A DNA stretch of 64,000 bases from an uncultured Gammaproteobacteria bacterium. GTDB taxonomy: Bacteria; Patescibacteriota; Microgenomatia; UBA8517. The notes below the pieces were generated by a model, which searched no databases, had not been told where the DNA came from, and was given only the letters and a program-made list of their open reading frames with translations. The DNA lies in contig CAYSAY010000001.1 in NCBI GenBank assembly GCA_964429215.1, positions 182,127 to 246,126 of the forward strand, in the 5' to 3' direction. Below are positions 18,620 through 63,842 of this stretch, one piece after another; within the stretch, counting starts at the first letter, position 1, and every line of letters begins with the position of its first letter. Position numbers and translations under genes: made by a program.

Positions 18620-18633
18620 ACGTTCTAAACATT

Positions 18634-19833: not shown

Positions 19834-19873
19834 CTTGTTGTTGTATTAATAATTTTAATGTATTATTGTCGTA

Positions 19874-22593: not shown

Positions 22594-22594
22594 A

Positions 22595-23233
22595 CTATTT
22601 TTTCTTTCTCCATTTATCAATTTCAGCGTGGTTTCCGGTTAGGAGTACTTCTGGGACTTTGAGTCCATTGTAGTCAAGTGGTTTCGTATACTGTGGGTAT
22701 TCGCTAATCATTCCGCTGTGTGACTCTTCTGCAAGGGATTCTGGTTTAATAACATTTGGTATGAGACGTGTTACAGAGTCAGCTATTACCATTGCAGGAA
22801 TTTCTCCTCCTGTTAAAACATAGTCTCCGATTGAAACGATTTCATCAACAAAGTTTTCGTGAACTCTGTGGTCAATTCCTTCATATCTTCCACAAATTAA
22901 AACTAATCTTTCAAGTTTTGAATAATCGTACGCCTTAGTTTGGGTGAATTTTTCCCCCCCTGCATCTAATACAACAATTTTTGTGTTTTTAGTCTTTGGC
23001 TTAACATTTAGACTCTGTAGGGCAGAGTCAATCACATCTACTCTTAATATCATCCCAGCACCTCCACCATATGGCGTGTCGTCAACTGTTCTTCTTTCAT
23101 CTAACCCAAACTCTTTTAAATCTACAATGTTTAGTTCAAGGAAATTTTTATCTTGAGCACGCCACATTATGGACTCAGTCATAGGTCCTATAAACATTTT
23201 TGGGAAAAGTGTAATAATATCTATTTTTAGCAT
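22595..23233 (-). CDS. trmD: tRNA (guanine37-N1)-methyltransferase
   Basis: MLKIDIITLFPKMF...DDTPYGGGAGMIL is a canonical TrmD signature. Confidence 0.85.
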   Translation of the reverse strand: MLKIDIITLFPKMFIGPMTESIMWRAQDKNFLELNIVDLKEFGLDERRTVDDTPYGGGAGMILRVDVIDSALQSLNVKPKTKNTKIVVLDAGGEKFTQTKAYDYSKLERLVLICGRYEGIDHRVHENFVDEIVSIGDYVLTGGEIPAMVIADSVTRLIPNVIKPESLAEESHSGMISEYPQYTKPLDYNGLKVPEVLLTGNHAEIDKWRKKK

Positions 23234-23277
23234 TAGTATGTATATTTTAGCAGATTAAAGTGGTAAAGTTTATTTAT

Positions 23278-28078: not shown

Positions 28079-29067
28079 ATTACCCTGAATCGCAATTAAT
28101 TTTAGAGGAAATTAAAAAGGCAAATAAGATTTTACTTAATTGCCATAGATCTCCTGACCCTGATAGTGTGGGTAGTGCGCTTTCAATTTATCATTTACTT
28201 CAGTTGCTTGGCAAAGAAAATATAAAAATTATTTGTCCTGATGAAATTCCGTATAATTGTAAATTTTTAGATTACTCTGAAAAAATTGAAAAAGTGAATT
28301 TTAACGAATTTGATTTTTCTCAATATGATTTATTTATAATTGCTGATTCTGGTAATTGGGATCAAGTTACGGGTAAAGACAATATTATAAATTCAAATAC
28401 TAAAAAGATAGTAATTGATCATCACTTTACTAATCCAAAATTTGGAGATATTAATATTTTAGATACAAATGCAGGTTCTACTGCTGAAGTTGTGGCTAAA
28501 TTTATAGAAGATATCAATTTAAAAATTGACAAAGTTTTGGCTACATCATTATTAACAGGCGTTATTGCAGATACATTATCATTTCAGACTGATGTAATTG
28601 GCGAATCGTCATTAACTATAGCCGATAGATTAATTAAAGTAGGTGCAGACAGAAACAATATCATTTTTAATTTAAATAAATCAAAATCTTTAGACGAAAT
28701 TCATTTGATAGGATATTTGCTGTCACATGTTAATGTCGAATTGGAATATAAATTCGCATGGTCTTCTGTTTCAAAAGATATATCCAGAGAGTATCCAATG
28801 AGTAAAGAAGCTAAATCTACAGTTGCAGGGTCATTTATACCTGCAATTCAGGATACAGATTTTGGTTTCGTACTTGAGGAAAGTGAGAAATATATTTCAG
28901 TGAGTTTTAGATCTAGAAATAATTTTGACGTTTCAAAAATAGCTGTGGAACTTGGCGGAGGAGGGCATAAGTCGGCTGCTGCTGCAAGAATTCCAAACTC
29001 AACTTATGAAGAGGCTGTAGAGAAAGTTTTAACAGCATGTAGAAAATATGCTAACAAAAATATTTAA
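28075..29067 (+). CDS. nrnA: DHH/DHHA1 phosphoesterase (NrnA-like oligoribonuclease / pAp phosphatase)
   Basis: HRSPDPDSVGSA, DHH and GGGGH(K) motifs. Confidence 0.75.
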   Translation: MNYPESQLILEEIKKANKILLNCHRSPDPDSVGSALSIYHLLQLLGKENIKIICPDEIPYNCKFLDYSEKIEKVNFNEFDFSQYDLFIIADSGNWDQVTGKDNIINSNTKKIVIDHHFTNPKFGDINILDTNAGSTAEVVAKFIEDINLKIDKVLATSLLTGVIADTLSFQTDVIGESSLTIADRLIKVGADRNNIIFNLNKSKSLDEIHLIGYLLSHVNVELEYKFAWSSVSKDISREYPMSKEAKSTVAGSFIPAIQDTDFGFVLEESEKYISVSFRSRNNFDVSKIAVELGGGGHKSAAAARIPNSTYEEAVEKVLTACRKYANKNI

Positions 29068-30420
29068 ATCGTTTTACACTCCTTGGAACTTGTTGATTTT
29101 AATAATTTTACTTTTTGCATTTATACTTAGAATTTATAGAATTGAATCACTTTTAGATTTTCATTACGACCAAGGAAGGGACGCCAAAATTATTTGGGAT
29201 TTATGGCATTCACAGAAATTATTTTTGATAGGTCCAACAACAGGACTTGAAGGAATATTTTTGGGTCCATTTTATTATTATTTAATTGCTCCGTTTTATT
29301 TAATTGGTGGAGGTAATCCTACTATTCCTTCAATGTTTTTATCATTACTCTATACCATAGCTTTATATATACTTTATTTGACAGGATTCAAAATTCAGGG
29401 TCGGTTTACAGGTTTTGTTGCACTTGTTGTAGGAGCTTTTTCAAACAACTTGGTTTTTTCAAGTAGGTGGCTATCAAACCCTACTCCAATTTTTTTAACT
29501 TCAATTATAATTTTCTATTTAATGGTATTAATTATTAAAAAGGAAAAGCCTATTTACTGGATTTTGGTTTATTTGGCAGTTGGTGTTTCATTACAACTTG
29601 AATTGGCAAGCGCAGTATTTTATCTACCAATATTGGCTATTTTTACGATTTGGCAGTTACGAAAAATTAATATCAAAATTTTTTTATTAGCTTGTGTGAT
29701 ATTTTTTGTAACTTTAATTCCTCAAATATTATTTAATTTTAAGCATCAGAATATATTACTTAATAATATTATTAATGAAGTCAAAAATGGAAAATCAGTT
29801 CAGATTAACTATGTTGATAGGATTGGAAATCTATGGAAAATAACAAAAGAGATATTTTAATACTTATATCATTATTTTTAGGTGTACCATTTGTTGGATT
29901 TACTTTATATTCTGGCAATAATGGTAATTTGTATGGTTACTATTTGACAGGATATTTTTTAATAATTATTTTGGCATTTTCATACTTAGCTTCGTATATA
30001 TGGAAATTTAAAATAGGAAAGATTTTAGTTATATTATTTTTATTTTTGTTTTTAAAAAATAATTTAGCAAAAACAATAAATAAATTAAATGTTGATGTAT
30101 TAGAATCTAAAGAGATCGTTTTGCAAAATCAGTTGATAGCAATTAATTGGATAAGAGAGGATGCTGGATTGGATAAATATAATATAGATATCTATGTTCC
30201 ACCTGTAATTCCGCATTCGTACAATTATTTGTTATTGTGGAATAATATAGTTCAAGAAGAAAAGGAAACAACTATTTTATACACTTTATATGAAGATGAT
30301 CCGCCTCATCCTGAAAGATTGAATGCATGGTTGGAACGTCAGAAAAAAATTGGTAAAATTCTTTATGAAGAAAGGTTTGGAGGTATAGTGGTGCAAAGAA
30401 GAGAGAGGATTAAAAAATGA
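29048..30420 (+). pseudogene. GT-C membrane glycosyltransferase paralog split into two frames (29048-29860 and 29833-30420): frameshift or sequencing error
   Basis: The N-terminal piece has HYDQGRDAKII...GPFYYYL, homologous to neighbouring GT-C genes. The second ORF continues the membrane domain in another frame. Combined length matches the intact paralogs. Confidence 0.45.
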
Positions 30421-37320: not shown

Positions 37321-38781
37321 GTGGAAGAAGAAATTGGAATAGAAACAGTTAAGGAACGAAGTGTCCGCGGAATTGTCGTATTGACTGGTAGAACTTTTTT
37401 ACTTCAAATTATAAGTTTAGTTGCACAACTTTTTTTATTTGCTTATCTTGGTAGATACGAATTTGGAGTATTTGCCATAGTTTCTGCAATTATTAACTTT
37501 CTTGTTTATTTTTCGGATATTGGCCTTGCTGCAGCTTTAATACAGAAAAAGGAGAAGCCAACTGAATTAGATTTAAAAACCACATTTACAGTACAACAGA
37601 TTTTAGTATTTTTAATAATAGGAGTAGTTTTACTTTTAACCCCATTTTTTGCTGAAAAATACTCATTAACTACTGATGGGAGAGTACTTTTGTATGCATT
37701 AAGTGCATCGTTAGTTTTTTCATCTTTTAAGAGTATCCCATCAGTGTTGTTAGAGAGAAAGCTGGAATTTGTTAAATTAGTTTTTCCTCAGATTTTAGAG
37801 CAAATTGTCTATAACTTAGTACTTGTAGTAATGGCCATGAACGGAGCAGGTTTGGCTAGTTTTAGTGTAGCCGTTCTTATTAGGGGTGTTGTAGGCCTTG
37901 CAACTATTTATTATCTACAGCCTTGGAAACCCGGTATTGCATTTTCAAGAGAAACATTAAAAGGACTGTTTAAGTTTGGAATTCCATATCAAATTAATAC
38001 GTTTCTTGCTACATTAAAAGACGATGGCATGACCATTGTGTTAGGAAGTATAATCGGCCCTGTTGGGATTGGAATACTTTCTTTTGCTCAAAAAATTGCA
38101 AGGCTTCCGCTTACTTTTTTTATGGATACTGTAACACGTGTAACTTTTCCTGCATTTTCCAGACTTCAAGATTCTAAACATGATTTAGAAAGAAGCGTAA
38201 CTAGATCAATATTCTTTATTTGCTTGTTGGTGTTTCCAAGTCTTGCTGGAATAATTATTCTATCTCCTCTACTTGTTAAGGTCGTTCCTAGATATGAACA
38301 ATGGACCCCAGCTCTTTTGCCAATTATATTTATTTCGATAAACTTTGCCTTTGCTGGAGCTACGACACAACTAACTAATTTACTAAATGCTATTGGAAAG
38401 ATAAAAATAACTTTTTATCTCATGATTATGTGGACAGTTTTAACTTGGTTAATGGTTCCATTCCTTGCACTTAAATTTGGTGTAAATGGTGCATCCGTTG
38501 GATATTCATTAGTTGGGGCATCATCTTTGATAGCTATTTTTATAGCGAAAAAATATGTTAATTTTTCAATAGGAGATTCAATTGTTAAACCTTTAATCGG
38601 AACTGTATCTATGATGATCATACTATTAATTGTACGTAACTTTTTAGATGTAAGTGTTAATTCAATGTTTATATTAGGGTTAGTAGGTGTTCTTGTTTAT
38701 GGGTCTGCAATGATATCTATGATTGGTGTTTCTTTAATAGAAGATGCTAAAAAAAGCTTTAAAACTATATTTTCAAAATAA
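37321..38781 (+). CDS. Wzx-like oligosaccharide/polysaccharide flippase (MOP superfamily)
   Basis: About 14 TM helices; N-terminus RSVRGIVVLTGRTFLLQIISLV is typical of Wzx-family flippases. Confidence 0.65.
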   Translation: MEEEIGIETVKERSVRGIVVLTGRTFLLQIISLVAQLFLFAYLGRYEFGVFAIVSAIINFLVYFSDIGLAAALIQKKEKPTELDLKTTFTVQQILVFLIIGVVLLLTPFFAEKYSLTTDGRVLLYALSASLVFSSFKSIPSVLLERKLEFVKLVFPQILEQIVYNLVLVVMAMNGAGLASFSVAVLIRGVVGLATIYYLQPWKPGIAFSRETLKGLFKFGIPYQINTFLATLKDDGMTIVLGSIIGPVGIGILSFAQKIARLPLTFFMDTVTRVTFPAFSRLQDSKHDLERSVTRSIFFICLLVFPSLAGIIILSPLLVKVVPRYEQWTPALLPIIFISINFAFAGATTQLTNLLNAIGKIKITFYLMIMWTVLTWLMVPFLALKFGVNGASVGYSLVGASSLIAIFIAKKYVNFSIGDSIVKPLIGTVSMMIILLIVRNFLDVSVNSMFILGLVGVLVYGSAMISMIGVSLIEDAKKSFKTIFSK

Positions 38782-40417
38782 TATAAATTGGATTTTTGTT
38801 GTCCTAATTGGGTCAATTGCGTGGTGTTTAACAATTGTTAAAAGTGGTTGGAGATATGAATTCGGATATGGGTTTTGGGGTGCAAATGGTTATGATGGTA
38901 TATGGCATATTTCTTTAATTAATAATATGTCTAACTTCAATTTTGAAAATCCAGTATTTGCAGGAGAACTTATTAAAAATTATCATGTAGGTTTTGATTT
39001 GTTGCTTGGAATAATAAATAGAATAACTAATATACCTGCTTCAATATTATATTTTCAAATATTGCCTGTTATTTTGTCACTATCTATAGGACTATTGACT
39101 TATAAATTTGTATTTGAGTGGACCAATAGTAAAAAGTCAGCAATTTATTCTACAATGTTTACTTATTTTGGTGGGTCGATGGCTTGGTTACTAAATAAAG
39201 GAGAATCTACATTTTGGTCGCAACAGGCTATTTCGACATTAGTTAATCCACCATATGCATTGTCATTAGTTTTGATTCTGGCAGGTTTAATTTTATACAG
39301 GAGAAAAAATTATTTAAGTATAATATTTTTTGGTTTACTAATTTTTATCAAGGTTTATTCTGGACTTTTAATTATTGGAGGATTATTTGTTGCCGGAGTT
39401 TATGATTACTACAAAAATAAAAATAAATTTACTTTAAAGATTTTTGTAGGTACTTTATTGTTGTCTTTTACCCTTTATGTTCCATTTAATTTAAATAGTG
39501 CAGGATTAATTAAGTGGGAACCCTTTTGGTTTTTGGAATCCATGTTTGCGGCAGGGGATAGATTAATATGGCCAAAAATGGCAGAGGCAATGCTTTCTTA
39601 TAAAAATCAATCAGTTATTTTAAAATTTGGAATAGCTTATGGTTTTGCTTTTACATTATTTATATTAGGTAATTTTTGGACTCGACTTATTTTTATTAAG
39701 GATCTGTTTAAAAAAGTTGATTCAATTAAACTGATATTATTGTTTGCGATTATTGCAGGAGTTACTATTCCAACTTTTTTTGTTCAATCAGGTACACCTT
39801 GGAACACGATTCAGTTTATGTATTATTCATTATTTTTTAGTGGAATATTGAGCGGAATCACCCTTAGTAAAACAAAGTCTTTATTTTCTTTAATTATTTT
39901 TATTGTAACTATACCAACTACATATATAAGTTTGACATCAATGTATGTGACAAATACTCCACCCGCAATTGTTTCAAAAGGCGAAATAGAGGCTTTAAAC
40001 GTATTGAAGAATCTTAAAGATGATGGTGGTGTGGTTTTGACATATCCTTATGATTTAGCGTTTGGTCCAGTTCCTCTTCCTAATCATATTCCATTATATA
40101 AATATGCTACGACTTCATATGTGTCTGCATACAGTTTAAAGAATTTATATTTTGAGCGTACAAATTTAGAGATTATGGGTTATGACTGGGTCGGTAGAAG
40201 AAATAATGTGGAGACATTTTTTACAACACTAGATATAAGTATTGCAAAGGCTTTTCTTAATGATAATAATATTAAATATTTGTATTTGGTTAAAGAAATG
40301 ACTCCATTGTCTGGGGAGTTGTTAAAGATTGGACCTGCTGATTTGGGGTTAACGAAGATTTTTGAGAATAAAGAAAGTATAATATACATATATGCCAAAG
40401 ATTTCGGCAGTTATTAA
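38744..40417 (+). CDS. Polytopic membrane protein, paralog family B (FW..G.DG.WH motif); putative glycan polymerase or transferase
   Basis: Homologous to the minus-strand gene at 54836-56707 (GFWGANGYDGIWH versus VFWSAHGHDGTWH). More than 10 TM helices. Confidence 0.5.
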   Translation: MLKKALKLYFQNNINWIFVVLIGSIAWCLTIVKSGWRYEFGYGFWGANGYDGIWHISLINNMSNFNFENPVFAGELIKNYHVGFDLLLGIINRITNIPASILYFQILPVILSLSIGLLTYKFVFEWTNSKKSAIYSTMFTYFGGSMAWLLNKGESTFWSQQAISTLVNPPYALSLVLILAGLILYRRKNYLSIIFFGLLIFIKVYSGLLIIGGLFVAGVYDYYKNKNKFTLKIFVGTLLLSFTLYVPFNLNSAGLIKWEPFWFLESMFAAGDRLIWPKMAEAMLSYKNQSVILKFGIAYGFAFTLFILGNFWTRLIFIKDLFKKVDSIKLILLFAIIAGVTIPTFFVQSGTPWNTIQFMYYSLFFSGILSGITLSKTKSLFSLIIFIVTIPTTYISLTSMYVTNTPPAIVSKGEIEALNVLKNLKDDGGVVLTYPYDLAFGPVPLPNHIPLYKYATTSYVSAYSLKNLYFERTNLEIMGYDWVGRRNNVETFFTTLDISIAKAFLNDNNIKYLYLVKEMTPLSGELLKIGPADLGLTKIFENKESIIYIYAKDFGSY

Positions 40418-54284: not shown

Positions 54285-54858
54285 CAAATCGAAATTAATA
54301 GTCTTTACAACAATTACAATTTTATTTTTGTTGTTTGTATTACCTGTCCTTATGATACTTCCTATCAGGATGGTTCCTAGTGGTGACCAGCCTGGGTATG
54401 GTGATATAGGAAGAGTATCTGTCTATGGTTTAAGGCAATTTACTCAAACGTTCAAGTCAACTGATATTAATTTAATGGCAATTGGGACTACTATTAAAAA
54501 TCCGAATTTAAAAAATAAAAAGGTTGTTAATTTTAATTTGTATGATGAAAAGAATAATTTAATTAGAGAAGTTAAACTAAATGGATTTAACATTGGAGAC
54601 GGTGATTTTGTAAAAATTGTATTTGATGTTATTCCTGATTCTAAAAACAAGAATTATAGCTTTACAATTTCATCTCCAGAAGCAAACGAAGAAGAAATAT
54701 TAGAATTATTCTTGATAGGTCCAACAGAGTCTATTTTTACCTATGCATATAACGATGAAGTTAAAGAGGGTGGAATACCTATGGTTACCTTTCATAAGCC
54801 TGAAAGTTTAGGAAAAAATATAGTTAAAATATACTCTAATATATTCTCCAAACTATAA
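54277..54858 (+). CDS. Hypothetical membrane-anchored protein
   Basis: N-terminal TM segment; no family recognised. Confidence 0.4.
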   Translation: MINKSKLIVFTTITILFLLFVLPVLMILPIRMVPSGDQPGYGDIGRVSVYGLRQFTQTFKSTDINLMAIGTTIKNPNLKNKKVVNFNLYDEKNNLIREVKLNGFNIGDGDFVKIVFDVIPDSKNKNYSFTISSPEANEEEILELFLIGPTESIFTYAYNDEVKEGGIPMVTFHKPESLGKNIVKIYSNIFSKL

Positions 54859-56707
54859 CCTCTGAGTTTTCGAATAATTTAATAAGACCAAGTGATTTAA
54901 TATCAATTTTTGGTGCGACTTCCTTAGGATAATACAAAATGTTTGAATTGGTTGATGATATGGCTGATTTAACAACGTCAGCTTTATCACTGTTAAATAT
55001 AGTTTTTTTGATTTCTAAACGAGGTCTATATTCGTATCCCATGATGTCTACTTGTTCGTAATCGTCAAAATATGTTCTTCTTGATGTTAACGCTGAAACA
55101 TATGACGTATCAAACCAGTCCCAGATATGAGGAATTGGTTTTTTTAGGTTTAAATATTCATTGTATGGAGGAGTTAAGATAACATCGTCTACATTAGTAT
55201 TATTTTTTATAAAATTAAGTGCTTCAAGTTCAGCAGCAGTAATTTTTGTGAAAGGTTGCCTTATATGGTTATCTGAGATGTAGAATTCGCGAAAGAGCTT
55301 TACTTGTGTTGGAATCATCAAAGAAAACAAGAATATCGTATATAGTATGTAGTATATTGGTTTCTTGACTCTGGCAAATATTTGAGCAGTACTAATACCG
55401 GCTAATATGCCAAATAACAAAATAAAGTATTGTAAAAATTGTGCAGTGTTACTTGCTACACCTTTTTGCAAAAAGAGTAATGGTAAAACAATTGATAGAA
55501 TAATTGAGACCTTAAATATTGCATTAGTTTTCACTAATTCCCATAAACCTAGAAATCTCATTCCTAAATTTCCAAAGAAGAAAATTAAAAAGCCCATTCC
55601 TTCAAGCCAGATTACGCGTTTCCAGTTGTGTTCATATATATATGTTTGGCGTCTTAATTCCCAATCCAAAAGGTTAAGTCTTGAAGGTTCTACTATCATT
55701 GTCCTTATATACCACCAAGGTTCGTAAATCAAAAATGATCCAGTGTTTGAAGAGTTAGGAATGTATAGGGCAAGTGCCACGATTCCACTTAAAAGAGAAA
55801 GTAAAAATAGTCTTCTGTCTTTGTTAAAAATTAATTTCCATGTACCAATAATTGATAATGTGCCAAGCAGGATTACTCCTGCATATATTTTAAAGGCTGA
55901 TATTGTTCCTAGTAAAATAAGTGAAATTAAAAAGTACTTTTTTTGTAATCTTTTCTCTTTTTGATCGAGAAAAACTACGCAATAGTAAATGCTCGCTAAA
56001 AATAAAAAATTAGAGATTATTTGGGGAGGATTACCACTAGAACTTTGAATTTGAGTAGCCCAGAAGACGCTTTCTCCCTTTCCAATCAAATATCCAAAAC
56101 TACCTGCAAAATATGTAAATATGGTTGCCCATATTGAAGCTGAAAAGTTATTTGTTAGTTTTTTTGTCAAATAATAAACAGAAGCTCCAAGAAATAATGA
56201 ATAAATTAATGGGAATATTTTAAAATATAAATTTTCATTTGAAATGCCTGTGTATTTACTAACTATGGTTGGTAATATATCTGAAAAAAAATGATAATTT
56301 TTAAGCGGTGTTCCGGCAAAAATTGGATTTTGGAACGGATAACCTTTCTTAATTTCCTCCATTAATGCCATGTGCCAAGTACCATCATGACCATGGGCGC
56401 TCCAGAAGACTAAATCTCCTGAATTATTGTATGTGCCACTTGGTGAAATGATTGCAATTTGACTAATAATTCCAATAGTGAATATTAAAATAACAATTAT
56501 TGTTTGTATGTTTAATTTGATTTTTATACTTTTAAATCTTTTAACTAAAGAGCGAAAATTGAATACAATCGTTAAAAATAAAACTGGTATGATTAAGTAG
56601 GGAATATTTAGTACAATAAAGATATATGAAACCAGAGTTGCAAGGGAAAATGCAAAAATCGAACCCATTAACAAGCTTTCCATTTGCAAATTATATACTA
56701 ATTGCAA
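54836..56707 (-). CDS. Polytopic membrane protein, paralog family B (inverted copy of the 38744 gene)
   Basis: VFWSAHGHDGTWHMAL...PIFAGTPLKNYHFF aligns with the 38744 product. The 5' end is uncertain because the ORF overlaps the divergent gene at 56650. Confidence 0.5.
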   Translation of the reverse strand: MQLVYNLQMESLLMGSIFAFSLATLVSYIFIVLNIPYLIIPVLFLTIVFNFRSLVKRFKSIKIKLNIQTIIVILIFTIGIISQIAIISPSGTYNNSGDLVFWSAHGHDGTWHMALMEEIKKGYPFQNPIFAGTPLKNYHFFSDILPTIVSKYTGISNENLYFKIFPLIYSLFLGASVYYLTKKLTNNFSASIWATIFTYFAGSFGYLIGKGESVFWATQIQSSSGNPPQIISNFLFLASIYYCVVFLDQKEKRLQKKYFLISLILLGTISAFKIYAGVILLGTLSIIGTWKLIFNKDRRLFLLSLLSGIVALALYIPNSSNTGSFLIYEPWWYIRTMIVEPSRLNLLDWELRRQTYIYEHNWKRVIWLEGMGFLIFFFGNLGMRFLGLWELVKTNAIFKVSIILSIVLPLLFLQKGVASNTAQFLQYFILLFGILAGISTAQIFARVKKPIYYILYTIFLFSLMIPTQVKLFREFYISDNHIRQPFTKITAAELEALNFIKNNTNVDDVILTPPYNEYLNLKKPIPHIWDWFDTSYVSALTSRRTYFDDYEQVDIMGYEYRPRLEIKKTIFNSDKADVVKSAISSTNSNILYYPKEVAPKIDIKSLGLIKLFENSEVIVWRIY

Positions 56708-58104
56708 TATTAATATTAGGCTTCATTTTAAGAGTGTATAAGATTAACTCACTTCCTATATACGGTGATGAACTTACAATTGTTTACGATAGTTATAGCT
56801 TACTAAAAACTGGCCGTGATCAAACAGGTGAATTTTTGCCAATTACATTTAAAATGGGAGCAGGTAGGCCTGCTGGATACGTTTACGGAAGTATACCGTT
56901 TGTTGCTTTATTTGGTCCTACAGCACTCGGAGTACGTGGATTGTCTCTGCTTTCTGGTCTTGGAATTATAGTAATAATGTATTTTCTGGGAAAGAAAATC
57001 TTTGGCCCGCCTGCCGGCGAGGCGGGTGAAAAAATTGGGCTTATTGCAAGCTTTTTAACAGCTATTTCATCTTGGGATATTTATTTATCCAGAGCAGGTT
57101 TTGAAGCACATTTTGCACTATTATTAACGCTTGCTGGAGTACTTTTGTTTTTACATAGAAGGTATATGGTAATGGCTATTCTTTTTGGACTAGCCGCTTT
57201 TACATATCCCACATTTAAATTAACAATACCATTATTGGGTGTTATTTTACTTTTGTATTCAGGGTTTAAGAGTGTTGTTTATCAGAAATCATTTTTAATT
57301 TCTCTTGTTGTTCTTGTATTATTTGCTGGATTTAATTTACGTGAAACTATTAAAGGTGTTTCGGAAGAAAGATTTATGAGGTTAAACATTCTCGCTGACT
57401 CGAATGTAAAAGAAGAAGTCATCCAAAATATCAATGAGCAGAGAAAACTATCAAGCCTTCCTGAATCGATTAAACCATATATTTACAATAAACCGTTTAG
57501 ATATACTAGGATTTTATTTGAGAATTATATTGAAAATTTGTCACCTCAATTTTTATATTTAAGAGGTGATAGAAATCCAAGGCATAATCCTGGCGAGTGG
57601 GGAATGATGTATTTAATAGATATTCCATTACTGTTTACAGGTCTGTATTATTTGGCCAAATTAGAAAAAAAGAATTTAGTTTTTCTTGTTTTGTGGATTT
57701 TGATTGTTCCTCTTGCTACTATGCTTCTCGGTCAAACGCATGCTTTGAGAAATAATTTAATGTTGCCTCCTCTAATTTTAATTTCTGCTTTTGCTTTAGC
57801 AAATTTACCCAAATTGTTTTCTACAATAGCTCTTTTAATTATGGGAACACAGTTAATTTTTGTATTAATGGCTGTTTATTTTTATGCCCCACATAAATTT
57901 GGTTCATTTTGGTCAATTGACGCAAAAAATGCATCGTTAACGGCTATTGGACAAGACAAAAGTAAACAAGTGGTTCTTTCTACAAAAATTGGGGATATCG
58001 AATATGCTTATCCAGTTTACGCCAAAATTGATCCAAGACTTGTAATTTCTCAATATCAAAAATGGCCAAAAGTTTATGGCAATGTAATTATTACAAATGA
58101 ATAA
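56650..58104 (+). CDS. ArnT/PMT-like GT-C membrane glycosyltransferase (tandem copy 1 of 4)
   Basis: LRVYKINSLPIYGDELTIVYDSYSLLKTGRDQTGEF; DE loop motif. Start at the ATG at 56650 by alignment with its paralogs. Confidence 0.6.
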   Translation: MQKSNPLTSFPFANYILIAILILGFILRVYKINSLPIYGDELTIVYDSYSLLKTGRDQTGEFLPITFKMGAGRPAGYVYGSIPFVALFGPTALGVRGLSLLSGLGIIVIMYFLGKKIFGPPAGEAGEKIGLIASFLTAISSWDIYLSRAGFEAHFALLLTLAGVLLFLHRRYMVMAILFGLAAFTYPTFKLTIPLLGVILLLYSGFKSVVYQKSFLISLVVLVLFAGFNLRETIKGVSEERFMRLNILADSNVKEEVIQNINEQRKLSSLPESIKPYIYNKPFRYTRILFENYIENLSPQFLYLRGDRNPRHNPGEWGMMYLIDIPLLFTGLYYLAKLEKKNLVFLVLWILIVPLATMLLGQTHALRNNLMLPPLILISAFALANLPKLFSTIALLIMGTQLIFVLMAVYFYAPHKFGSFWSIDAKNASLTAIGQDKSKQVVLSTKIGDIEYAYPVYAKIDPRLVISQYQKWPKVYGNVIITNE

Positions 58105-59740
58105 ACTATCTAAAATTGTTTTATTTTTAATTATAGTCTTAGCCTTTGTTTTGAGGGTTTATAATATAACTTCAATTCCACCATCTTTAAACTGGGATGA
58201 GACCTCAATTGGTTATAATGCCTATTCAATTTTAAAGACTGGTAGAGATGAATGGGGTGAGTTTATGCCAGTTCACTTTAAATCGTTTGGTGAGTATAAA
58301 CTCCCCGCACAAATTTATGCCTCAATCCCTGCTATTGCAATTTTTGGTCTAAATGAATTTGGTGTGCGTATTACTCCAGTAATATATGGGACATTATCTG
58401 TGTTACTTTTGTACCTGTTGGTACAGGAACTCTACAAAAAACGAGAGATTTCATTACTATCTGCATTTCTCCTTGCAGTTTCTCCGTGGCACATACAATT
58501 AACGAGAGGATCGTTTGAATCATCATTTTCTCTGTTTTGGTTTTTAATGGGACTTTTACTTTTAGTTAAAGGGTTCAAGAATACCAAGTGGTTAATCGTT
58601 TCAATGCTTCCATTTGTAATTTCAGTCTATACGTATAATACCGCTAGAGTATTTACACCATTATTTTTATTTGTAGTGTATTTAATTAAATATAAATATT
58701 TAATTAAAAATTTTAAATATGCGCTTTTTAGTTTCTTAGTATTTGTGTTTTTGGCAATTCCAATTGTTCCATTTGTTATTTCAGGGGATGCAGCGGCAAG
58801 ATATAAGTTAGTTAGTATTACTGATGATGCTGGATTAATTCCAAGAATTGAAGAGAGAAGAAATCTATCTAAGTCACCAAAAGTGGTGACAAAATTAATT
58901 CACAATAGATATACCTACAATACTGTTTATTTCAGCCAGAATTATATAGCCCATTTTACACCTGACTTTTTGTTTTTTAGTGGAGCAGGGCACAGACAAC
59001 ATCATGTGCAAGGAGTTGGAGAACTGTATTGGATTCAGGCTCCCTTTTTATTGGTTGGATTATATTTTCTGTTAAAAAGAAAGGATATAAGTTTAAAAAT
59101 ATTACTACCGTGGTTATTCTTAGCATTTGTTCCTGTGTCAATGACAAACGATAGTATTCCAAATGCGTTACGTACTCTTATCGCAGTTCCTGTTTATCAA
59201 ATTTTTTCAGCAATTGGTTTTTTTGAAGTCTGGCAAATGGCAAAAAGCAAAAAGCAGAAGACTGTTTTGACACTGGTAGCAATTGCATTATTTGTAATTA
59301 ACATTTTTATGTTTGCAACTAATCTCTATACCCTATACCCTATACGCTATTCTAAAGACTGGCAGTACGGTAATAAGCAAGCAGTGGAGTATATTCAAAA
59401 AAATCAAGACAATTATGACTTAATAGTATTTACGAGAAGTTATGGTGAACCTCATATTTTTACATTATTTAATTTAAAATATGATCCTGCAAAATTTCAG
59501 CAGAGTTCTAATTTAGAAAGATTTGAAACATTTAATTGGGTAAGAGTATTAAGATTTGATAAATATAACTTCCCAGATTTAGGTGATCTTGGAACAAAGT
59601 ATGAAGATATTATTAAAGTAAATCCAGGGAAAAGAATATTATTTATAGGAAAGCCTAATGATTTTCCTGAAAGAGTAAAAATATTAGAAAGGATAAACTT
59701 CTTAGATGGCTCAGAAGCTTTTGAGATTACTACGAACTAA
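58097..59740 (+). CDS. ArnT/PMT-like GT-C membrane glycosyltransferase (copy 2)
   Basis: LRVYNITSIPPSLNWDETSIGYNAYSILKTGRDEWGEFMP. Confidence 0.6.
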   Translation: MNKLSKIVLFLIIVLAFVLRVYNITSIPPSLNWDETSIGYNAYSILKTGRDEWGEFMPVHFKSFGEYKLPAQIYASIPAIAIFGLNEFGVRITPVIYGTLSVLLLYLLVQELYKKREISLLSAFLLAVSPWHIQLTRGSFESSFSLFWFLMGLLLLVKGFKNTKWLIVSMLPFVISVYTYNTARVFTPLFLFVVYLIKYKYLIKNFKYALFSFLVFVFLAIPIVPFVISGDAAARYKLVSITDDAGLIPRIEERRNLSKSPKVVTKLIHNRYTYNTVYFSQNYIAHFTPDFLFFSGAGHRQHHVQGVGELYWIQAPFLLVGLYFLLKRKDISLKILLPWLFLAFVPVSMTNDSIPNALRTLIAVPVYQIFSAIGFFEVWQMAKSKKQKTVLTLVAIALFVINIFMFATNLYTLYPIRYSKDWQYGNKQAVEYIQKNQDNYDLIVFTRSYGEPHIFTLFNLKYDPAKFQQSSNLERFETFNWVRVLRFDKYNFPDLGDLGTKYEDIIKVNPGKRILFIGKPNDFPERVKILERINFLDGSEAFEITTN

Positions 59741-61070
59741 TATTTTTTTGGTTTTAATCTGTTTACTGTTTTTAGTAACTAGATTGTACAAAATTAGTGA
59801 GATTCCTGGCTCTGTTTACTGGGATGAGGCTTCAATTGGTTATAATGCATATTCAGTTTTAACTACAGGTAGAGATGAGTGGGGTGAGTTTATGCCACTA
59901 CATTTTAGGGCGTTTGGCGAATTTAAGTTACCGGTTTATATTTACTCAGTTGCTATTTCAGAGAGTTTGTTTGGCATGAATGTTTTTGCTGTTAGGTTTC
60001 CAGCTGTGATATTTGGTTTGTTGTCAATTGTTGGGTTGTACTTAGTAATAAATAAAATCACTAAGTTAAAGATAGTTGCGCTCTTGAGTTCATTTTTATT
60101 TTCAGTTACGCCTTGGTTTTTTATATTTTCTAGAACTGGTTATGAAGCAGTTAGTGGTCTTGCCTTTTTTATATGGGCGATTTATTTTTTAATTAAGTCG
60201 ATTGAAGAGAAAAATTACTTAGTACTATCTACAATTTTATTTGTTGGGTCTACTTATAGCTACAACAGTTTTCGTATATTAACACCTGTGGTTTTAGGAC
60301 TAGGGCTTTTGTATTTTCTTGTCAGAAAGCACTATGGAGTTGTATTTATGTCAGCATTAATTCTTCTTGCTAGTATGTTTCCTCTTTATAAATTATTTAA
60401 ACAGGATTCAGGTCTATCAAGACTTCAATCAGTGAAATCAACAAGTAATATTGTAAGTAATTACATTAAAAATTATTCTCCTTATTATTTATTTATTGAA
60501 GGGGATACAAATCCAAGAAGCCAAGTACCTTACAAATCACAGTTATATTTTACTGATTCAATCTTCTTGATATTGGGAGTTTTATATATTTTGAAAAGCA
60601 AAAATCCGAAATTGTATTTAGTGTTATGTCTTTTGTTAATTGCCCCAATTCCAGCTGCGATAACAAAGGAAAATCCTCATGCACTGCGAAGTATTTTGAT
60701 GAGTCCTATATTTAGTGTAATATCTGCGCTTGGAATTTATTATCTTTCAAAATCTAGTAAATTATTAATTGTAATTGTAGTTGGTGCTTATTTAATAAGT
60801 TTTGGAAATTATTATTATAAATTTAATACTGAATATAATGATCTGTCAAAATCTGCTTGGCAGTTTGAATACAAAGATATTTTTGAAAAACAGAAAGAAG
60901 GATGCGTGAGTGATGAATTTGCACAGCCATATATATTTGCTCTTTATTACCAAAAAGTAAATCCAAGTGATTTTATTGCCACCCGTGAACTAAATCCTGT
61001 TTCTGACTGGGGCTTTTCAACAGTAAAATCATTTGGTAAATATACATTTCCCAAAATATGCAAAAACTAA
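59706..61070 (+). CDS. ArnT/PMT-like GT-C membrane glycosyltransferase (copy 3)
   Basis: YWDEASIGYNAYSVLTTGRDEWGEFMPLHF. Confidence 0.6.
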   Translation: MAQKLLRLLRTNIFLVLICLLFLVTRLYKISEIPGSVYWDEASIGYNAYSVLTTGRDEWGEFMPLHFRAFGEFKLPVYIYSVAISESLFGMNVFAVRFPAVIFGLLSIVGLYLVINKITKLKIVALLSSFLFSVTPWFFIFSRTGYEAVSGLAFFIWAIYFLIKSIEEKNYLVLSTILFVGSTYSYNSFRILTPVVLGLGLLYFLVRKHYGVVFMSALILLASMFPLYKLFKQDSGLSRLQSVKSTSNIVSNYIKNYSPYYLFIEGDTNPRSQVPYKSQLYFTDSIFLILGVLYILKSKNPKLYLVLCLLLIAPIPAAITKENPHALRSILMSPIFSVISALGIYYLSKSSKLLIVIVVGAYLISFGNYYYKFNTEYNDLSKSAWQFEYKDIFEKQKEGCVSDEFAQPYIFALYYQKVNPSDFIATRELNPVSDWGFSTVKSFGKYTFPKICKN

Positions 61071-62629
61071 CTTACTTTTTTTTGGCATTAATTGTTGCAT
61101 TAGCAGTTTTTTTAAGATTCTGGAAGCTTGATACAATCCCAGCATCTCTTAATTGGGATGAGATTGCAGCAGGATATAATGCATACACCATAGCAAATTG
61201 GGGCGCAGATGAATATGGAAATAAATTTCCCCTTGTTTTTAAATCTTTTGCTGATGACAAACATCCAGTTCATATTTATTTAACTTCAATAGTTGTTAAG
61301 ATATTTGGCCTTTCTGATTTTAATATTCGTGCAACTAGTGCCGGTATAGGGGTGTTGACTGTATTTTTTGTATTTTTTCTTGCAAGAAAACTGTTTGATA
61401 GTAATTTAGTAGGATTATTTGCAGCATTATTTTTGGCGGTTTCGCCTTATCATATTCATTTTTCGAGAGGTCTTTGGGAGAATAACTTTGCATTATTTTT
61501 TCTGGTTGCTGGTCTTTCCTTGATTTACATAGGTTTAAGAAAGTTAAATTACTTTATTCCAGTAGCATTTTTATTTTTTGGACTTTCGTTTTATTCCTAT
61601 CATTCAGCGAAAATCGTTGTTCCATTGGTAGCGTTACTTGCCTGCATTATTAACATTAAAGAGCTGGTTCGAAACAAAACAGTTTTAATTTCTTCAGTTT
61701 TAGTTGTTTTATTTTTTGGACTGCTTTTGATTAAAGATACTAGGATTTTGGGATTTGCGAGGATGAATCAAACAAAGTTTTCAGAGGAACAAATAAAAAC
61801 TGCAGGTGGGAAATATAAATTGATATTTAATAATTATATGAAACATTTTACATATTCTTATCTTTTTGATAAAGGAGATCAAGGTCCTAGAGCATCTGTT
61901 AAAGTTGTTGGTGAATTTTACAAGATTGATCTTGTATTAGCATTTGTTGGATTTTTGTTTCTTGTTTACAGAAAAAAATGGCAAGCATTATCAATCATTT
62001 CATTATGGTTATTATTATCACCAATTCCTAGTTCTGTGTCCTCGGTAGAGCCAAGTGCTATAAGAGGAATATTTATGGTAGTTCCTGTGTTATTACTATC
62101 AGCATATGGTGCAGGAGCTTTAGTATTTTTATTCAAAAATAAATTCCTAAGAGTTGGAATTATTTTGATCGTACTAGGAATTTTAAGTCGTGAAGTAATT
62201 AATTATTTGAATTATTATACAAAAGTGTATCCAATCAAAGAGGCGATTGAGTGGCAATATGGTATGAAACAAATTGTAACCTATGCGGAAAGTAACCCAG
62301 ATATGTATAAGATGTATGTGGATAATATAAGGCAACAGCCCTATATATACTTTTTGTATTATTTGAAAGTTCCACTACCGGAATTACTTGCTAGTGTAAA
62401 ATATGATGAAAGTAATTCGAAAAGTTTTAATACAGTTCTTTCTTTTGATAGATATCAATTTGGTAACTGGAATATTATAGAAAGTTATCCAAATGAAGGA
62501 ATTGTATATGCAGTTACACCAAGTTATTACACAGGTTTAAGATATATACAACAGTTTGACGTTATCAAGTTAATTAAGTATCCTGATAGAAGTGATGCAT
62601 TTTATATAGTAGGAGGACATCAACAATGA
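61058..62629 (+). CDS. ArnT/PMT-like GT-C membrane glycosyltransferase (copy 4)
   Basis: NWDEIAAGYNAYTIANWGADEYGNKFPLVF. Confidence 0.6.
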   Translation: MQKLTYFFLALIVALAVFLRFWKLDTIPASLNWDEIAAGYNAYTIANWGADEYGNKFPLVFKSFADDKHPVHIYLTSIVVKIFGLSDFNIRATSAGIGVLTVFFVFFLARKLFDSNLVGLFAALFLAVSPYHIHFSRGLWENNFALFFLVAGLSLIYIGLRKLNYFIPVAFLFFGLSFYSYHSAKIVVPLVALLACIINIKELVRNKTVLISSVLVVLFFGLLLIKDTRILGFARMNQTKFSEEQIKTAGGKYKLIFNNYMKHFTYSYLFDKGDQGPRASVKVVGEFYKIDLVLAFVGFLFLVYRKKWQALSIISLWLLLSPIPSSVSSVEPSAIRGIFMVVPVLLLSAYGAGALVFLFKNKFLRVGIILIVLGILSREVINYLNYYTKVYPIKEAIEWQYGMKQIVTYAESNPDMYKMYVDNIRQQPYIYFLYYLKVPLPELLASVKYDESNSKSFNTVLSFDRYQFGNWNIIESYPNEGIVYAVTPSYYTGLRYIQQFDVIKLIKYPDRSDAFYIVGGHQQ

Positions 62630-63525
62630 AAAAAGAATTAAAATTATCACAAAGTGACAAGCTACGCTTATCTGTAGTTCAAGCAACAAGAAATGAAGCT
62701 GAAAATATCGAAAGGAACTTGAAATCTGTAAAAGATATCGCCTTTGAAATGATTGTTGTTGATGAGTATTCAACAGATAATACTAAACAACTTGCTGAAA
62801 AAAATGGTGCAAAAGTTTATCTAGAAAAACATCATGATATTTTTCATATTACAAAGCAGAAGGCTATAGATTATGCGACAGGCGATTGGATTTTACAGAT
62901 TGATTCAGATGAAGCTGTTACACCAGAACTAGCTAAAGAAATTAAAAAAGTATTAAATGGAGAAGAAATTGTAATTAATGATCCAAAAAAGAAAAAACTT
63001 TTTGATAAACATCAAGAATTGCTTGCAGAAAGAGATGGAAAATTAGGTAAAGACGAAGGAGAAGTTGTTGCTTATAACGAAATTGTAGCCTATTTTATAC
63101 CTCGAGTAAATATGTTTTTGGGTAGACCATTAATTCATGGAGGGGTTTATCCGGATGGGGTTATAAGACTGTTTAAGAAGGGCAAAGCATGGTTACCGGG
63201 AAAATCAGTTCATGAGCAAATGGAAATAGATGGAAAAGTTGGGTGGCTTAACAATAATCTTCTTCACTATGATTCACCAACACTTTCTAGATATTTTTGG
63301 AGGCTTAACAGATATACAGATGCTCATGCGCTTGAGTTGAAAGTTAATAAAGTTTCTAAGGGGTTAGGTGGTTTTGTTCAATATGTTTTTGTAAAACCTA
63401 TATTTACTTTTTTTAATTTGTTTTTAAGACATAAAGGTTTTAAGGATGGAGTAAATGGATTTTTATGGAGTTTTTTCTCTGCCCTTCATTTTCCCATAGC
63501 TTATTTTAAATATATAACTTCTTGA
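62626..63525 (+). CDS. Glycosyltransferase family 2 (paralog of 40392 and 41296)
   Basis: LSVVQATRNEAENIERNLKSV...EMIVVDEYSTDNT...IDSDE. Confidence 0.65.
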   Translation: MKKELKLSQSDKLRLSVVQATRNEAENIERNLKSVKDIAFEMIVVDEYSTDNTKQLAEKNGAKVYLEKHHDIFHITKQKAIDYATGDWILQIDSDEAVTPELAKEIKKVLNGEEIVINDPKKKKLFDKHQELLAERDGKLGKDEGEVVAYNEIVAYFIPRVNMFLGRPLIHGGVYPDGVIRLFKKGKAWLPGKSVHEQMEIDGKVGWLNNNLLHYDSPTLSRYFWRLNRYTDAHALELKVNKVSKGLGGFVQYVFVKPIFTFFNLFLRHKGFKDGVNGFLWSFFSALHFPIAYFKYITS

Positions 63526-63556
63526 CACCTGTCAGAATTCTGTCATAATTATGACA
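63522..63556 (+). promoter_or_regulatory. Toxin-antitoxin promoter (TTGACA-N16-CATAAT) overlapping the palindromic operator TGTCATAATTATGACA
   Basis: Perfect 16-bp palindrome at 63541-63556; near-palindrome TGTCAGAATTCTGTCA immediately upstream; -35 hexamer at 63522-63527. Confidence 0.5.
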
Positions 63557-63578
63557 TATGACGCAACAATTAATTACT

Positions 63579-63842
63579 ATGGAATCATTTGCTTCGGTTC
63601 AAGAGGCTCAGGCAGGAATTACTAAACTATTTGCTAAAGCTAAAGATAAAGGCAAATTTGTAAGAGTAATGAGAAATCAAGAACCTCTCGGTGTATTAAT
63701 ACCAAATAATATTTGGGAATCACTTCTTGAAGATATTGAAGCTTTATCTAGCCCAAATTATATTAAAGCGATTTCTGATTCTCGAAAATCTAAAAGAACT
63801 TATTCTTCAGATGAAGTAAAAGATATATTAAGTTATAATTAA
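63579..63842 (+). CDS. Phd/YefM-family type II antitoxin
   Basis: MESFASVQEAQAGITKLF...VRVMRNQEPLGVLIPNNIWESLLEDIEAL follows the YefM/Phd pattern. Start chosen at the second Met by alignment. Confidence 0.65.
   Translation: MESFASVQEAQAGITKLFAKAKDKGKFVRVMRNQEPLGVLIPNNIWESLLEDIEALSSPNYIKAISDSRKSKRTYSSDEVKDILSYN

Follow-up and report, generated by a model that had tools for sequence, protein, structure and literature searches.

A Tandem Array of Diverged GT-C Glycosyltransferase Paralogs in a Glycosylation Island of a Microgenomates Bacterium

Why would a bacterium encode one kind of membrane glycosyltransferase four times in a row, and what would each copy do? The question is raised by a stretch of 64,000 nucleotides (nt) (contig CAYSAY010000001.1 of GenBank assembly GCA_964429215.1; hereafter, the window), whose lineage runs from the Patescibacteria group through the Microgenomates group to Ca. 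Woeseibacteriota. Near the end of the window, four co-oriented genes, here called G1 to G4, follow one another head to tail and are trailed by a glycosyltransferase gene of family GT2. A preliminary description, made from the letters alone, had presented the four as tandem copies of an ArnT/PMT-like enzyme. Our analysis identifies G1–G4 as uncharacterized members of the well-known GT-C superfamily, in a Patescibacteria subfamily of the PMT_2/PMT clan; shows that the copies are ancient and under purifying selection; and leads us to assign a probability of roughly 0.6 to the reading that they are four active GT-C transferases which use lipid-phosphate-sugar donors and differ in acceptor or linkage. 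Catalysis would take place outside the membrane; that the acceptors differ is what we infer.

The Four Paralogs and Their Orthologs

Are the four genes distinct? The open reading frames (ORFs) lie where the preliminary description had put them, with small overlaps between stop and start (8 nt for G1/G2, 35 nt for G2/G3, 13 nt for G3/G4, and 4 nt between G4 and the trailing GT2 gene). All six pairwise BLASTP comparisons of their products are significant over nearly the full length (26–32% identity, E-values from 5e-26 to 9e-77): G2 is 30% identical to G1 (E 2e-48), 32% to G3 (E 9e-77), and, across residues 1–545, 29% to G4. These similarities, far beyond chance in every pair, bear out the claim of tandem diverged paralogs, and the copies are far from the near-identity that an assembly duplication would leave behind. 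The only notable repeat at the DNA level is a 158-nt block over the first-loop motif discussed below, with 62–75% identity among G2, G3, and G4. Gene conversion was considered as the source of this block and rejected: paralogs from the same genome are no more alike in it than paralogs from different genomes (e.g., 0.645 vs 0.639 for G2/G3).

How old are the duplications? One genome per GTDB species was scanned for the locus; ORFs were called in the loci and compared with the proteins of the window. The scan yielded 80 loci with a G2 relative (39–81% identity) from Woese-, Davies-, and Shapirobacteria; G2 orthologs as a whole span 39–95% identity. By their source names, the orthologs of G1 and G2 come from Patescibacteria, the Microgenomates group, or Candidatus Woesebacteria. 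When sequences were grouped by average linkage, loose cutoffs failed to separate G2 from G3 and G4; clades were read by bipartitions from a neighbor-joining tree of 377 family members, in which G2 forms a clade of 80 sequences (77 loci, so close to one in each genome) and G4 one of 72 (66 loci). Each of the four genes has orthologs of its own at 40–80% identity (typically 40–78% for those of G3 and G4, which come after G2 in most loci). Because these orthologs extend across Woese- and Daviesbacteria, the duplications predate the divergence of the two lineages. The family as a whole is large: 3,149 cluster representatives (50%-identity clustering) match G2 at E ≤ 1e-30, mostly over the full length.

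At 50 of 60 loci the gene right after G2 is G3, and at 57 of 61 the one after G3 is G4; when homologous starts are used, the median overlap at each junction is 4 nt. None of the 68 loci of 15 kb or more lacks a homolog of the trailing GT2 gene (median identity 48%; at least 40% in 59 of them); in the 40 loci with coordinates listed, this homolog lies ~3.1–6.8 kb past the G2 start, downstream of G2-G3-G4. G1 is another matter: its orthologs (34 sequences) are restricted to a Woesebacteria-like subset, and G1 abuts G2 in about one third of the loci that have it, 0.8–8 kb of other genes lying between the two elsewhere. Daviesbacteria carry further orthogroups of the G family in the recurring order x3-x4-x1-G2-G3-G4. 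Upstream copies number from 0 to 5 per locus, and the whole family array from ~2 to 8; at the small end, Shapirobacteria loci L070–L073 have G2 with only a G3-like partner, and loci L041 and L065 are without G3 or G4. As judged from these arrangements, G2-G3-G4-GT2 is the conserved unit, and the four-copy array is one state of a variable family array. The serial duplication proposed in the preliminary description is thus upheld as far as tandem paralogy goes, with the correction that the duplications are ancient, that each copy has its own orthologs, and that the unit that is conserved is not the array of four. One close relative, L083, shows two local departures: a 208-aa ORF without a Pfam family (L083 5783–6409, minus strand) is inserted between the G2 and G3 orthologs, and a gene of the 23S_rRNA_IVP family stands downstream of G4 in place of the GT2 gene.

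Is any copy decaying? The ratio of nonsynonymous to synonymous substitutions (dN/dS) was taken from orthologs, the window against the 95%-identical L083, and not between paralogs, because synonymous sites are saturated at ~30% amino acid identity. It amounts to 0.17 for G1, 0.15 for G2, 0.23 for G3, and 0.13 for G4 (dS 0.14–0.30), similar to the values of two flanking genes (0.07 and 0.12). The ratios show purifying selection on every copy, and nothing suggests pseudo-enzymes. The idea that the array is an artefact of assembly, or a set of recent duplicates drifting toward pseudogenes, can draw on the tandem arrangement only and on another GT-C gene of the region (29048/29833) that looks split; it is set against paralog identities of 26–32%, orthologs in dozens of species, dN/dS of 0.13–0.23, and two further contigs with the same four-gene array, L083 and the independent Logan contig L002. 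The identities together with the independent contigs rule out an assembly artefact, and we consider the idea as a whole dead for all practical purposes.

Where does the array begin? Gene callers start G1 at GTG 56734 (456 aa), which would remove the first transmembrane helix (TM1), the one that aligns with TM1 of G2–G4; the longest ORF starts at ATG 56626 (492 aa). We take ATG 56650 as the start because orthologs of 484–492 aa cover 100% of the protein read from it, because a purine-rich AGGGA resembling a Shine-Dalgarno element lies just 5′ of it, and because TM1 is kept. Promoter and terminator scans of 56.6–63.5 kb gave no signal above the shuffled-sequence background and no excess of internal terminator-like sites; together with the tight overlaps, this is compatible with co-transcription of the array.

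Family, Fold, and the First Loop

What kind of enzyme is encoded? G2, G3, and G4 exceed the gathering scores of two Pfam families: PMT_2 (PF13231, cutoff 26.1 bits), with 41.8 bits (E 1.7e-10), 41.8 bits (E 1.6e-10), and 53.8 bits (E 3.4e-14), respectively, and PMT (PF02366, cutoff 22.7 bits), with 35.7 bits (E 8.7e-9), 23.1 bits, and 26.1 bits (E 7.5e-6). Many G1 orthologs also carry PF13231. Neither PMT_4TMC (PF16192) nor MIR is matched at E ≤ 0.01 by any of G1–G4, nor does any of them match Pfam STT3. AlphaFold2 models of G2 and G1, made from ortholog alignments, have mean local confidence scores (pLDDT) of 72 and 73.5 and predicted template modeling scores (pTM) of 0.75 and 0.78; when the models were run against the PDB with Foldseek, the matches at E < 1e-3 were GT-C enzymes only, namely AglB, PglB, STT3, ArnT, ALG12, ALG9, and Pmt4; STT3, PglB, ArnT, and ALG12 are those matched by the G1 model. 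AglB, PglB, and STT3 give the best E-values (1e-7 for AglB with the G2 model), and Pmt1/2, DPY19, EmbA/B, AftA, AftD, and PimE follow as weaker matches. By TM-score, the G2 model is closer to ArnT (5ezm; 0.55/0.56) and ALG12 (0.54/0.60) than to PglB (0.48/0.39), and the structures of Pmt1, Pmt2, and Pmt4 superpose on it over the N-terminal ~265 residues only.

Does the resemblance to ArnT extend to function? Database names for G1 and G2 orthologs read “glycosyltransferase family 39” or “ArnT-like”; such labels should not be taken as function. The NCBIfam ArnT equivalog (NF009784), with a cutoff of 567 bits, gives 16.5 bits for G2, 20.7 bits for G3, and no match for G1 or G4. A match to the Agl23 family of NCBIfam, at 28–32 bits against a cutoff of 126, was judged uninformative. 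The “ArnT/PMT-like enzyme” of the preliminary description is therefore right as to superfamily (PMT_2 and PMT for G2–G4, a modeled GT-C fold for G1 and G2), although G1 stays below the Pfam cutoffs, and wrong if read as ArnT function.

The catalytic center should be sought near the N-terminus. A few residues past TM1, all four copies carry a D-E pair within a motif that in G2–G4 takes the form (N/Y)WDE...GYNAY...G(R/A)DE(W/Y)G (LRVYNITSIPPSLNWDETSIGYNAYSILKTGRDEWGEF in G2, TRLYKISEIPGSVYWDEASIGYNAYSVLTTGRDEWGEF in G3, and LRFWKLDTIPASLNWDEIAAGYNAYTIANWGADEYGNKF in G4) and has its G1 counterpart in LRVYKINSLPIYGDELTIVYDSYSLLKTGRDQTGEF. At least 90% of the members of every one of the four orthogroups keep the D-E pair, and all groups retain the second Asp (G-x-D). 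N32, W33, D34, E35, D51, E52, W53, and P58 are invariant among 31 G2 orthologs, as are Y38, G39, D40, E41, and D57 among 36 G1 orthologs; at least 90% of the 63 sequences of the G3 orthogroup keep WDE and DEWG, and at least 90% of the 72 of the G4 orthogroup keep WDE, GYNA, and DE. In characterized GT-C enzymes, the acidic pair of the TM1–TM2 loop aligns with the active sites, D55/E56 in ArnT (5ezm), D77/E78 in Pmt1, and D281/D282 in Emb, and its first Asp is the residue to which the acceptor, a metal, or both are bound (Eisenhaber et al., PMC7801869). Since the D-E pair of G1–G4 corresponds to this pair, the motif can be identified as the canonical GT-C catalytic loop. A profile alignment (hhalign) of G2 to E. 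coli ArnT is weak (56% probability, E 1e-4, 140 columns); it pairs W33/Y40/S44 of G2 with W28/Y35/S39 of ArnT and displaces ArnT D31-E32-T33 by two residues from G2 D34-E35-T36. The loop would lie outside, judging by the positive charge of the N-terminus and by analogy with GT-C enzymes. In the Daviesbacteria loci L029–L066, orthogroup x4 of the G family keeps the Glu and loses the Asp of the pair (consensus P.Ft..EA); x4 may be a catalytically altered paralog.

If the loop is shared, what sets the copies apart? TM1 and loop 1 form the region best conserved between paralogs (27–64% identity, against 17–36% elsewhere); the figures are 24–34% for the membrane core, 18–36% for the long loop corresponding to G2 residues 230–312, and 17–30% for the C-terminal domain, which we assume to lie outside the membrane. 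The C-terminal domains, held in the preliminary description to have diverged toward different acceptor specificities, are not more diverged in sequence than the membrane core, and this part of the argument needs correcting; they do differ in length, from 67 aa in G1 and 74 aa in G3 to 126 aa in G4 and 130 aa in G2, and are conserved within orthogroups. In the G2 orthogroup, the C-terminal domain is the most conserved region of all, its first half scoring 0.69 vs 0.67 for the catalytic loop; in the other orthogroups the corresponding conservation is ~0.52–0.54. Conservation within groups combined with difference between groups is what one would expect if each paralog recognized a ligand of its own; the pattern lends support, short of proof, to the preliminary idea of different acceptor specificities. 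One element stands out: D-W-Q-Y-G (G2 D421–G425, 59357–59371), directly after the last TM helix, is invariant in 31 G2 orthologs, has the equivalent EWQYG in G4, and is not conserved in G1 or G3. Its position recalls that of the WWDYG motif of oligosaccharyltransferases; WWDYG proper is absent from G1–G4.

The Glycosylation Island, Donors, and Acceptors

G1–G4 do not stand alone. The array that caught the eye in the preliminary description is real and turns out to be a small part of something larger: it closes a ~38-kb glycosylation island (25857–63525) with at least 15 GT-C genes (Table 1), and further GT2 genes and a DPMS homolog lie just upstream of the island (17606–24396). Several of these genes again form paralog sets, among them 26582/29048/30417/32662 (23–30% identity by BLASTP). 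One PMT_2-type gene of this set is apparently split into overlapping ORFs (29048–29860, 270 aa, and 29833–30420, 195 aa); the 30417 paralog can be aligned to it across the junction at ~29830–29860, first in frame 1 and then, with a weak match, in frame 3. A frameshift, decay into a pseudogene, or an error in sequencing could account for the split. GC content of the window is ~31%, and scans for tRNA genes and Rfam families found nothing in it.

Table 1. Coordinates of the array and of other features in the window (single numbers are gene starts).
Feature	Position	Strand	Remarks
G1	56650–58104	+	484 aa from ATG 56650; GT-C glycosyltransferase paralog
G1 first-extracytoplasmic-loop motif	56755–56841	+	P..YGDE...TGRDQTGEFLP; D-E at 56767–56772
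G2	58097–59740	+	547 aa; GT-C glycosyltransferase paralog; copy with the widest conservation
G2 loop motif	58178–58270	+	PPSLNWDETSIGYNAYSILKTGRDEWGEFMP; D34-E35 at 58196–58201
G3	59706–61070	+	454 aa; GT-C glycosyltransferase paralog; C-terminal domain short (74 aa)
G3 loop motif	59805–59897	+	PGSVYWDEASIGYNAYSVLTTGRDEWGEFMP; D40-E41 at 59823–59828
G4	61058–62629	+	523 aa; GT-C glycosyltransferase paralog; C-terminal domain full-length (126 aa)
G4 loop motif	61139–61231	+	PASLNWDEIAAGYNAYTIANWGADEYGNKFP; D34-E35 at 61157–61162
Trailing GT2 (GT-A fold) glycosyltransferase	62626–63525	+	299 aa; Pfam Glycos_transf_2 9e-17
Polytopic membrane protein, divergent to G1	54836–56668	−	610–623 aa; paralog of 38744–40417 (+)
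PMT_2-type GT-C genes of the island	26582, 29048/29833 (split), 30417, 32662, 35784	+	Pfam
YfhO GT-C	42971	+	Pfam
PTPS_related GT-C genes, three in tandem	46908, 48574, 50175	+	28–35% mutual identity
GT87 genes, two in tandem	51848, 52992	+	31% identity; weak MptA_B-family match
Wzx-like flippase	37321	+	Pfam
GT2 genes	25857, 31907, 40392, 41267, 45968	+	Pfam
GT4	41983	+	Pfam
Methyltransferase	45321	+	Pfam
DPMS-type polyprenyl-phosphate hexose synthase	23260–24396	+	Glycos_transf_2 and GtrA_DPMS_TM
Nucleotide-sugar genes	9732–17068		NTP transferases 9732, 13861; 4,6-dehydratase 14604; RmlC-like epimerase 15699; RmlD-like reductase 16226
Sortases	472–1002, 7180–7674		flank Asn/Asp/Thr/Gly-rich repeat proteins with signal-peptide-like N-termini
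Repeat proteins between/near sortases	2595–3830, 3935–6136, 6129–7160, 7707–8306 (−)

Where would the sugar come from? The product of 23260–24396 matches the dolichol-phosphate-mannose synthase of Pyrococcus furiosus (5mlz) over its full length, including the GtrA-like TM domain (E 2.5e-42), and probably provides the many GT-C enzymes of the island with a lipid-linked hexose as donor. The GT2 proteins encoded at 25857 and 31907 resemble ArnC, PgfS, AglJ, and dolichol-phosphate-hexose synthases, all below equivalog cutoffs, and PgfS is the best NCBIfam match of 31907. A polyprenyl-phosphate-linked sugar is what we infer as the donor of G1–G4, and the nucleotide-sugar genes suggest a 6-deoxyhexose among the sugars used. 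A candidate synthase, a candidate flippase, and GT-C enzymes are all encoded in the window, the first two 19–33 kb away from the array and not syntenic with G2 elsewhere. At the other end of the window, the sortase-flanked repeat proteins may form sortase-dependent surface fibers and could be substrates for glycosylation: in a 733-aa repeat protein, a lengthy PTPPPAPT...-type linker is combined with a C-terminal TM helix and, after it, RRRSHA; another secreted protein has a TPTQISTVTPTSTAVPTTQPT linker, and a Thr/Pro-rich linker is present in ORF 1012–1503.

The membrane protein divergent to G1 and its paralog at 38744–40417 (30% identity, E 1e-74) match no Pfam or NCBIfam family; a homolog at ≥40% identity is present in 30 of 68 loci and is kept beside G1 in Woesebacteria, and the two divergent genes, read from the starts adopted in this analysis, overlap by ~19 nt at their 5′ ends. 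Directly after the glycosyltransferase module comes a PhdYeFM-type antitoxin and ParE toxin pair (63558–63842 and downstream; L001 15462–16001), and the best sigma-70-like match of the region (63522–63549) lies just 5′ of this pair.

How could these parts work together? A GT-A enzyme would make a polyprenyl-phosphate-linked sugar, the candidates being the product of 23260, the DPMS homolog, and the ArnC/PgfS-like GT2 enzymes encoded at 25857 and 31907; flipping of the lipid-linked sugar would fall to the Wzx-like protein or to the GtrA-like TM domain; and each GT-C paralog would then, outside the membrane, attach the sugar to a surface glycoconjugate, at an acceptor site or in a linkage of its own. 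The paralogs would be built with an N-in first helix, an outward loop bearing the D-E motif and the second G-x-D-E block, and a soluble domain after the last TM helix. The shared loop would (i) carry out a common chemistry and (ii) handle the donor, and the paralog-specific long loop and C-terminal domain would confer acceptor specificity. A combination of a GT-A enzyme, a flippase, and a GT-C enzyme of the PMT_2 or YfhO type with an acidic extracellular-loop motif has been described as a multi-component transmembrane glycosylation framework (PMC8035078).

Several findings weigh against reading G1–G4 as four active transferases supplied in this way. G1 is the odd copy: its motif, YGDE...YDSY...GRDQTG, has Y-G-D-E without the W and DQTG instead of DEWG, so that the W/Y-D-E loop motif, claimed in the preliminary description for all four copies, holds for G2–G4 and is modified in G1. 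G1 also falls below the Pfam threshold (15.5 bits vs 26.1 for PMT_2; no PMT match), and its family assignment comes from BLAST and from the modeled fold. Searches of PDB sequences by phmmer with G2 and by a 31-sequence profile returned nothing relevant, and the fold matches are moderate (TM 0.45–0.56, with high root-mean-square deviation). The trailing GT2 enzyme is unlike a classical GtrB/ArnC/DPMS lipid-phosphate-sugar synthase past its N-terminal half: the nearest solved sequences, GmaR (1e-10), SunS (3e-10), and DPMS (1e-3), match its N-terminal ~95 aa only, and its C-terminus consists of hydrophobic or amphipathic segments with an RHKGFKDGxxGF motif. Finally, the candidate synthase at 23260 is 32 kb off, and in other genomes no counterpart was found less than 10 kb from G2.

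Which acceptors, then, would the four transferases serve? Two proposals refine the reading on this point. G2, G3, and G4, joined by whichever upstream copies are present, might act in sequence on one growing extracytoplasmic polymer, each enzyme contributing its own residue or linkage, in an assembly line for a glycopolymer or lipoglycan like that of the mycobacterial Emb, Aft, and Mpt enzymes for arabinogalactan and LAM; the conserved G2-G3-G4-GT2 order and the overlapping genes suit this idea, as do the neighboring GT87 genes (with their weak MptA_B match), the PTPS_related, YfhO, Wzx-like, GT4, and NDP-6-deoxyhexose genes, and the weaker fold matches to EmbA/EmbB, AftA, AftD, and PimE. However, the Emb/Aft matches are weak (E > 0.05), and we know of no polymer from Microgenomates; the assembly line is a plausible contender, at worse than even odds. 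Alternatively, the acceptors might be proteins: in O-glycosylation like that by actinobacterial or fungal Pmt or by streptococcal PgtC2/Pgf enzymes, single sugars would be transferred from a polyprenyl-phosphate-linked donor to Ser/Thr in Pro/Thr-rich disordered regions of secreted or sortase-anchored proteins, with different paralogs for different substrates. Such modification of Ser/Thr-rich intrinsically disordered regions by GT-C enzymes is documented in monoderm bacteria (PMC12041528), and the window offers the parts for it: PF02366 above the gathering score in G2–G4, a loop-1 D-E pair as in Pmt1, a DPMS homolog, a GT2 enzyme (31907) closest to PgfS, and two sortases with secreted repeat proteins that have Pro/Thr-rich linkers. 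Yet neither PMT_4TMC nor MIR was found, the PMT scores are marginal (23–36 bits), the candidate acceptors are ~50 kb off, and the Wzx-like, GT4, GT87, and YfhO genes are more typical of polysaccharide or lipoglycan assembly; we take protein O-glycosylation to be about as plausible as the assembly line, likewise at worse than even odds. The copies could also depend on each other physically, G2, G3, and G4 being subunits of one obligate complex of the Pmt1-Pmt2 or EmbA-EmbB kind whose stoichiometry the overlaps would match. They co-occur and are adjacent with 4-nt overlaps in most genomes, and solved heterocomplexes of GT-C paralogs (6p25, Pmt1-Pmt2; 7bvf, EmbA-EmbB) are among the fold matches, but the loci with G2 and a G3-like gene only (L070–L073) or without G3 or G4 (L041, L065) speak against it, and in L083 a foreign minus-strand gene separates G2 from G3 with neither gene lost; an obligate complex is unlikely.

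Could the enzymes instead belong to a different branch of the GT-C superfamily? With an oligosaccharyltransferase-like activity, a glycan already assembled on a polyprenyl-diphosphate carrier would be handed over to protein in one block. The best Foldseek E-values, those of AglB, PglB, and STT3, hint in this direction; so do the Wzx-like flippase and the GT4 and GT2 genes, able to build a lipid-linked oligosaccharide, and the W-Q-Y-G after the last TM helix of G2 and G4, roughly at the position of WWDYG. This activity is very improbable all the same: there is no STT3 match, the profiles matched are PMT/PMT_2, TM-scores are higher to ArnT and ALG12 than to PglB, WWDYG is absent, W-Q-Y-G is not conserved in G1 and G3, and the C-terminal domains (67–130 aa) are far smaller than those of oligosaccharyltransferases. 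A true ArnT, which would transfer 4-amino-4-deoxy-L-arabinose or a similar sugar to lipid A and confer resistance to cationic peptides, has even less going for it. 5ezm is among the highest TM-scores, with ALG12 comparable or higher, and the loop motif is shared; the profile alignment, however, reaches 56% probability over 140 columns, and no ArnA, ArnB, or ArnD homologs are found among the scanned ORFs of the 64-kb window. Bacteria of the candidate phyla radiation (CPR) have been placed in a monoderm clade without an outer membrane or lipid A (bioRxiv 10.1101/2021.05.31.446380). Because of the equivalog scores (16–21 bits vs 567) and the monoderm lineage, ArnT function is excluded and this alternative effectively refuted.

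Place Among Known Systems

What is new about the locus? The family is ordinary; the investment in cell-surface glycosylation is unusually heavy, as ~38 kb with at least 15 GT-C genes would amount to roughly 4% of the genome, judged by related complete genomes of 0.8–1.1 Mb. CPR/Patescibacteria combine tiny genomes with what is presumed to be a life attached to other cells; to our knowledge, the chemistry of their envelopes is almost unknown. Literature searches on arrays of GT-C, GT39, or mannosyltransferase genes in CPR/Patescibacteria turned up no paper on the subject, so that three features appear not to have been described before: G2-G3-G4-GT2 as a conserved module, the varying set of paralogs that extends it, and the density of GT-C genes in a ~1-Mb genome. 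The module has been kept intact, ordered, and under purifying selection since before the split of Woese- and Daviesbacteria, and we therefore argue that surface glycans are central to these organisms. One may speculate further that G2-G3-G4-GT2, the upstream paralogs, and the other GT-C sets of the island together build an undescribed, Microgenomates-specific major envelope glycoconjugate, be it a lipoglycan or a heavily glycosylated surface fiber, with a dozen or more GT-C enzymes acting outside the membrane in a mycobacterium-like strategy adopted by an ultra-small (~0.8–1.1 Mb) symbiont genome, and that G2/G3/G4 might form a heteromeric complex; we put this at well below even odds. Whatever the product, the module offers heterologous expression and structure work a defined, conserved set of targets, in which four enzymes have one catalytic loop in common and differ in their soluble domains.

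The nearest functional parallel to four transferases fed by lipid-linked donors is found in multi-component systems such as CsbB/GtcA/YfhO, GtlA/GtlB, and CsdAB/CD/EF of L. lactis (PMC8035078). Like the locus described here, these comprise, in a monoderm host, a GT-C enzyme whose domain is of the PMT_2 or YfhO type and whose extracellular loop bears an acidic motif, paired in the genome with candidates for a GT-A polyprenyl-phosphate-sugar synthase and for a GtrA- or Wzx-type flippase; in both, several GT-C enzymes may share one donor pathway. They differ in number and kind: one GT-A and one GT-C enzyme in the known systems, against three to eight GT-C paralogs in an overlapping array with a single non-canonical GT2 enzyme here, and identity to characterized members is below detection by BLAST and PDB profile search. 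We know of no lipoteichoic acid, wall teichoic acid, or rhamnan, the acceptors of these systems, in Microgenomates.

Single GT-C enzymes offer closer likenesses in structure than in sequence or context. ArnT (GT83; 5ezm/5f15; E. coli b2257) shares with G2 the fold (TM 0.55/0.56), a length of ~550 aa, a small C-terminal soluble domain, and W..D-E-T..Y after TM1, but the equivalog model fails widely, the arn operon context is missing, the host lineage is monoderm and without lipid A, and the motif is shifted in register by two residues. The protein O-mannosyltransferases (GT39; yeast Pmt1-Pmt2, 6p25, and Pmt4; actinobacterial Pmt) share Pfam PMT with G2–G4 and the loop-1 D-E pair (D77/E78 of Pmt1), need a polyprenyl-phosphate-mannose synthase, a homolog of which is present here, and have paralogs that form heteromers, as those of the array could. 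In contrast, G1–G4 have neither MIR nor PMT_4TMC, superpose over ~265 N-terminal residues, and end in an unrelated soluble domain.

As for the arrangement, diverged GT-C paralogs encoded side by side are known from the mycobacterial embC-embA-embB genes, and the rgtA-rgtB-rgtC genes of Rhizobium reportedly encode side-by-side ArnT-like transferases of galacturonic acid. Emb proteins, however, are about twice as large and have carbohydrate-binding domains, Rgt enzymes act on lipopolysaccharide, and neither set is known to have a trailing conserved GT2 gene or the variable copy number (3–8 across related lineages) of the G array. What embCAB and rgtABC do share with the array is the basic plan: adjacent GT-C paralogs that use one class of lipid-phosphate-sugar donor and serve different acceptor positions; EmbA and EmbB work as a heterodimer (7bvf).

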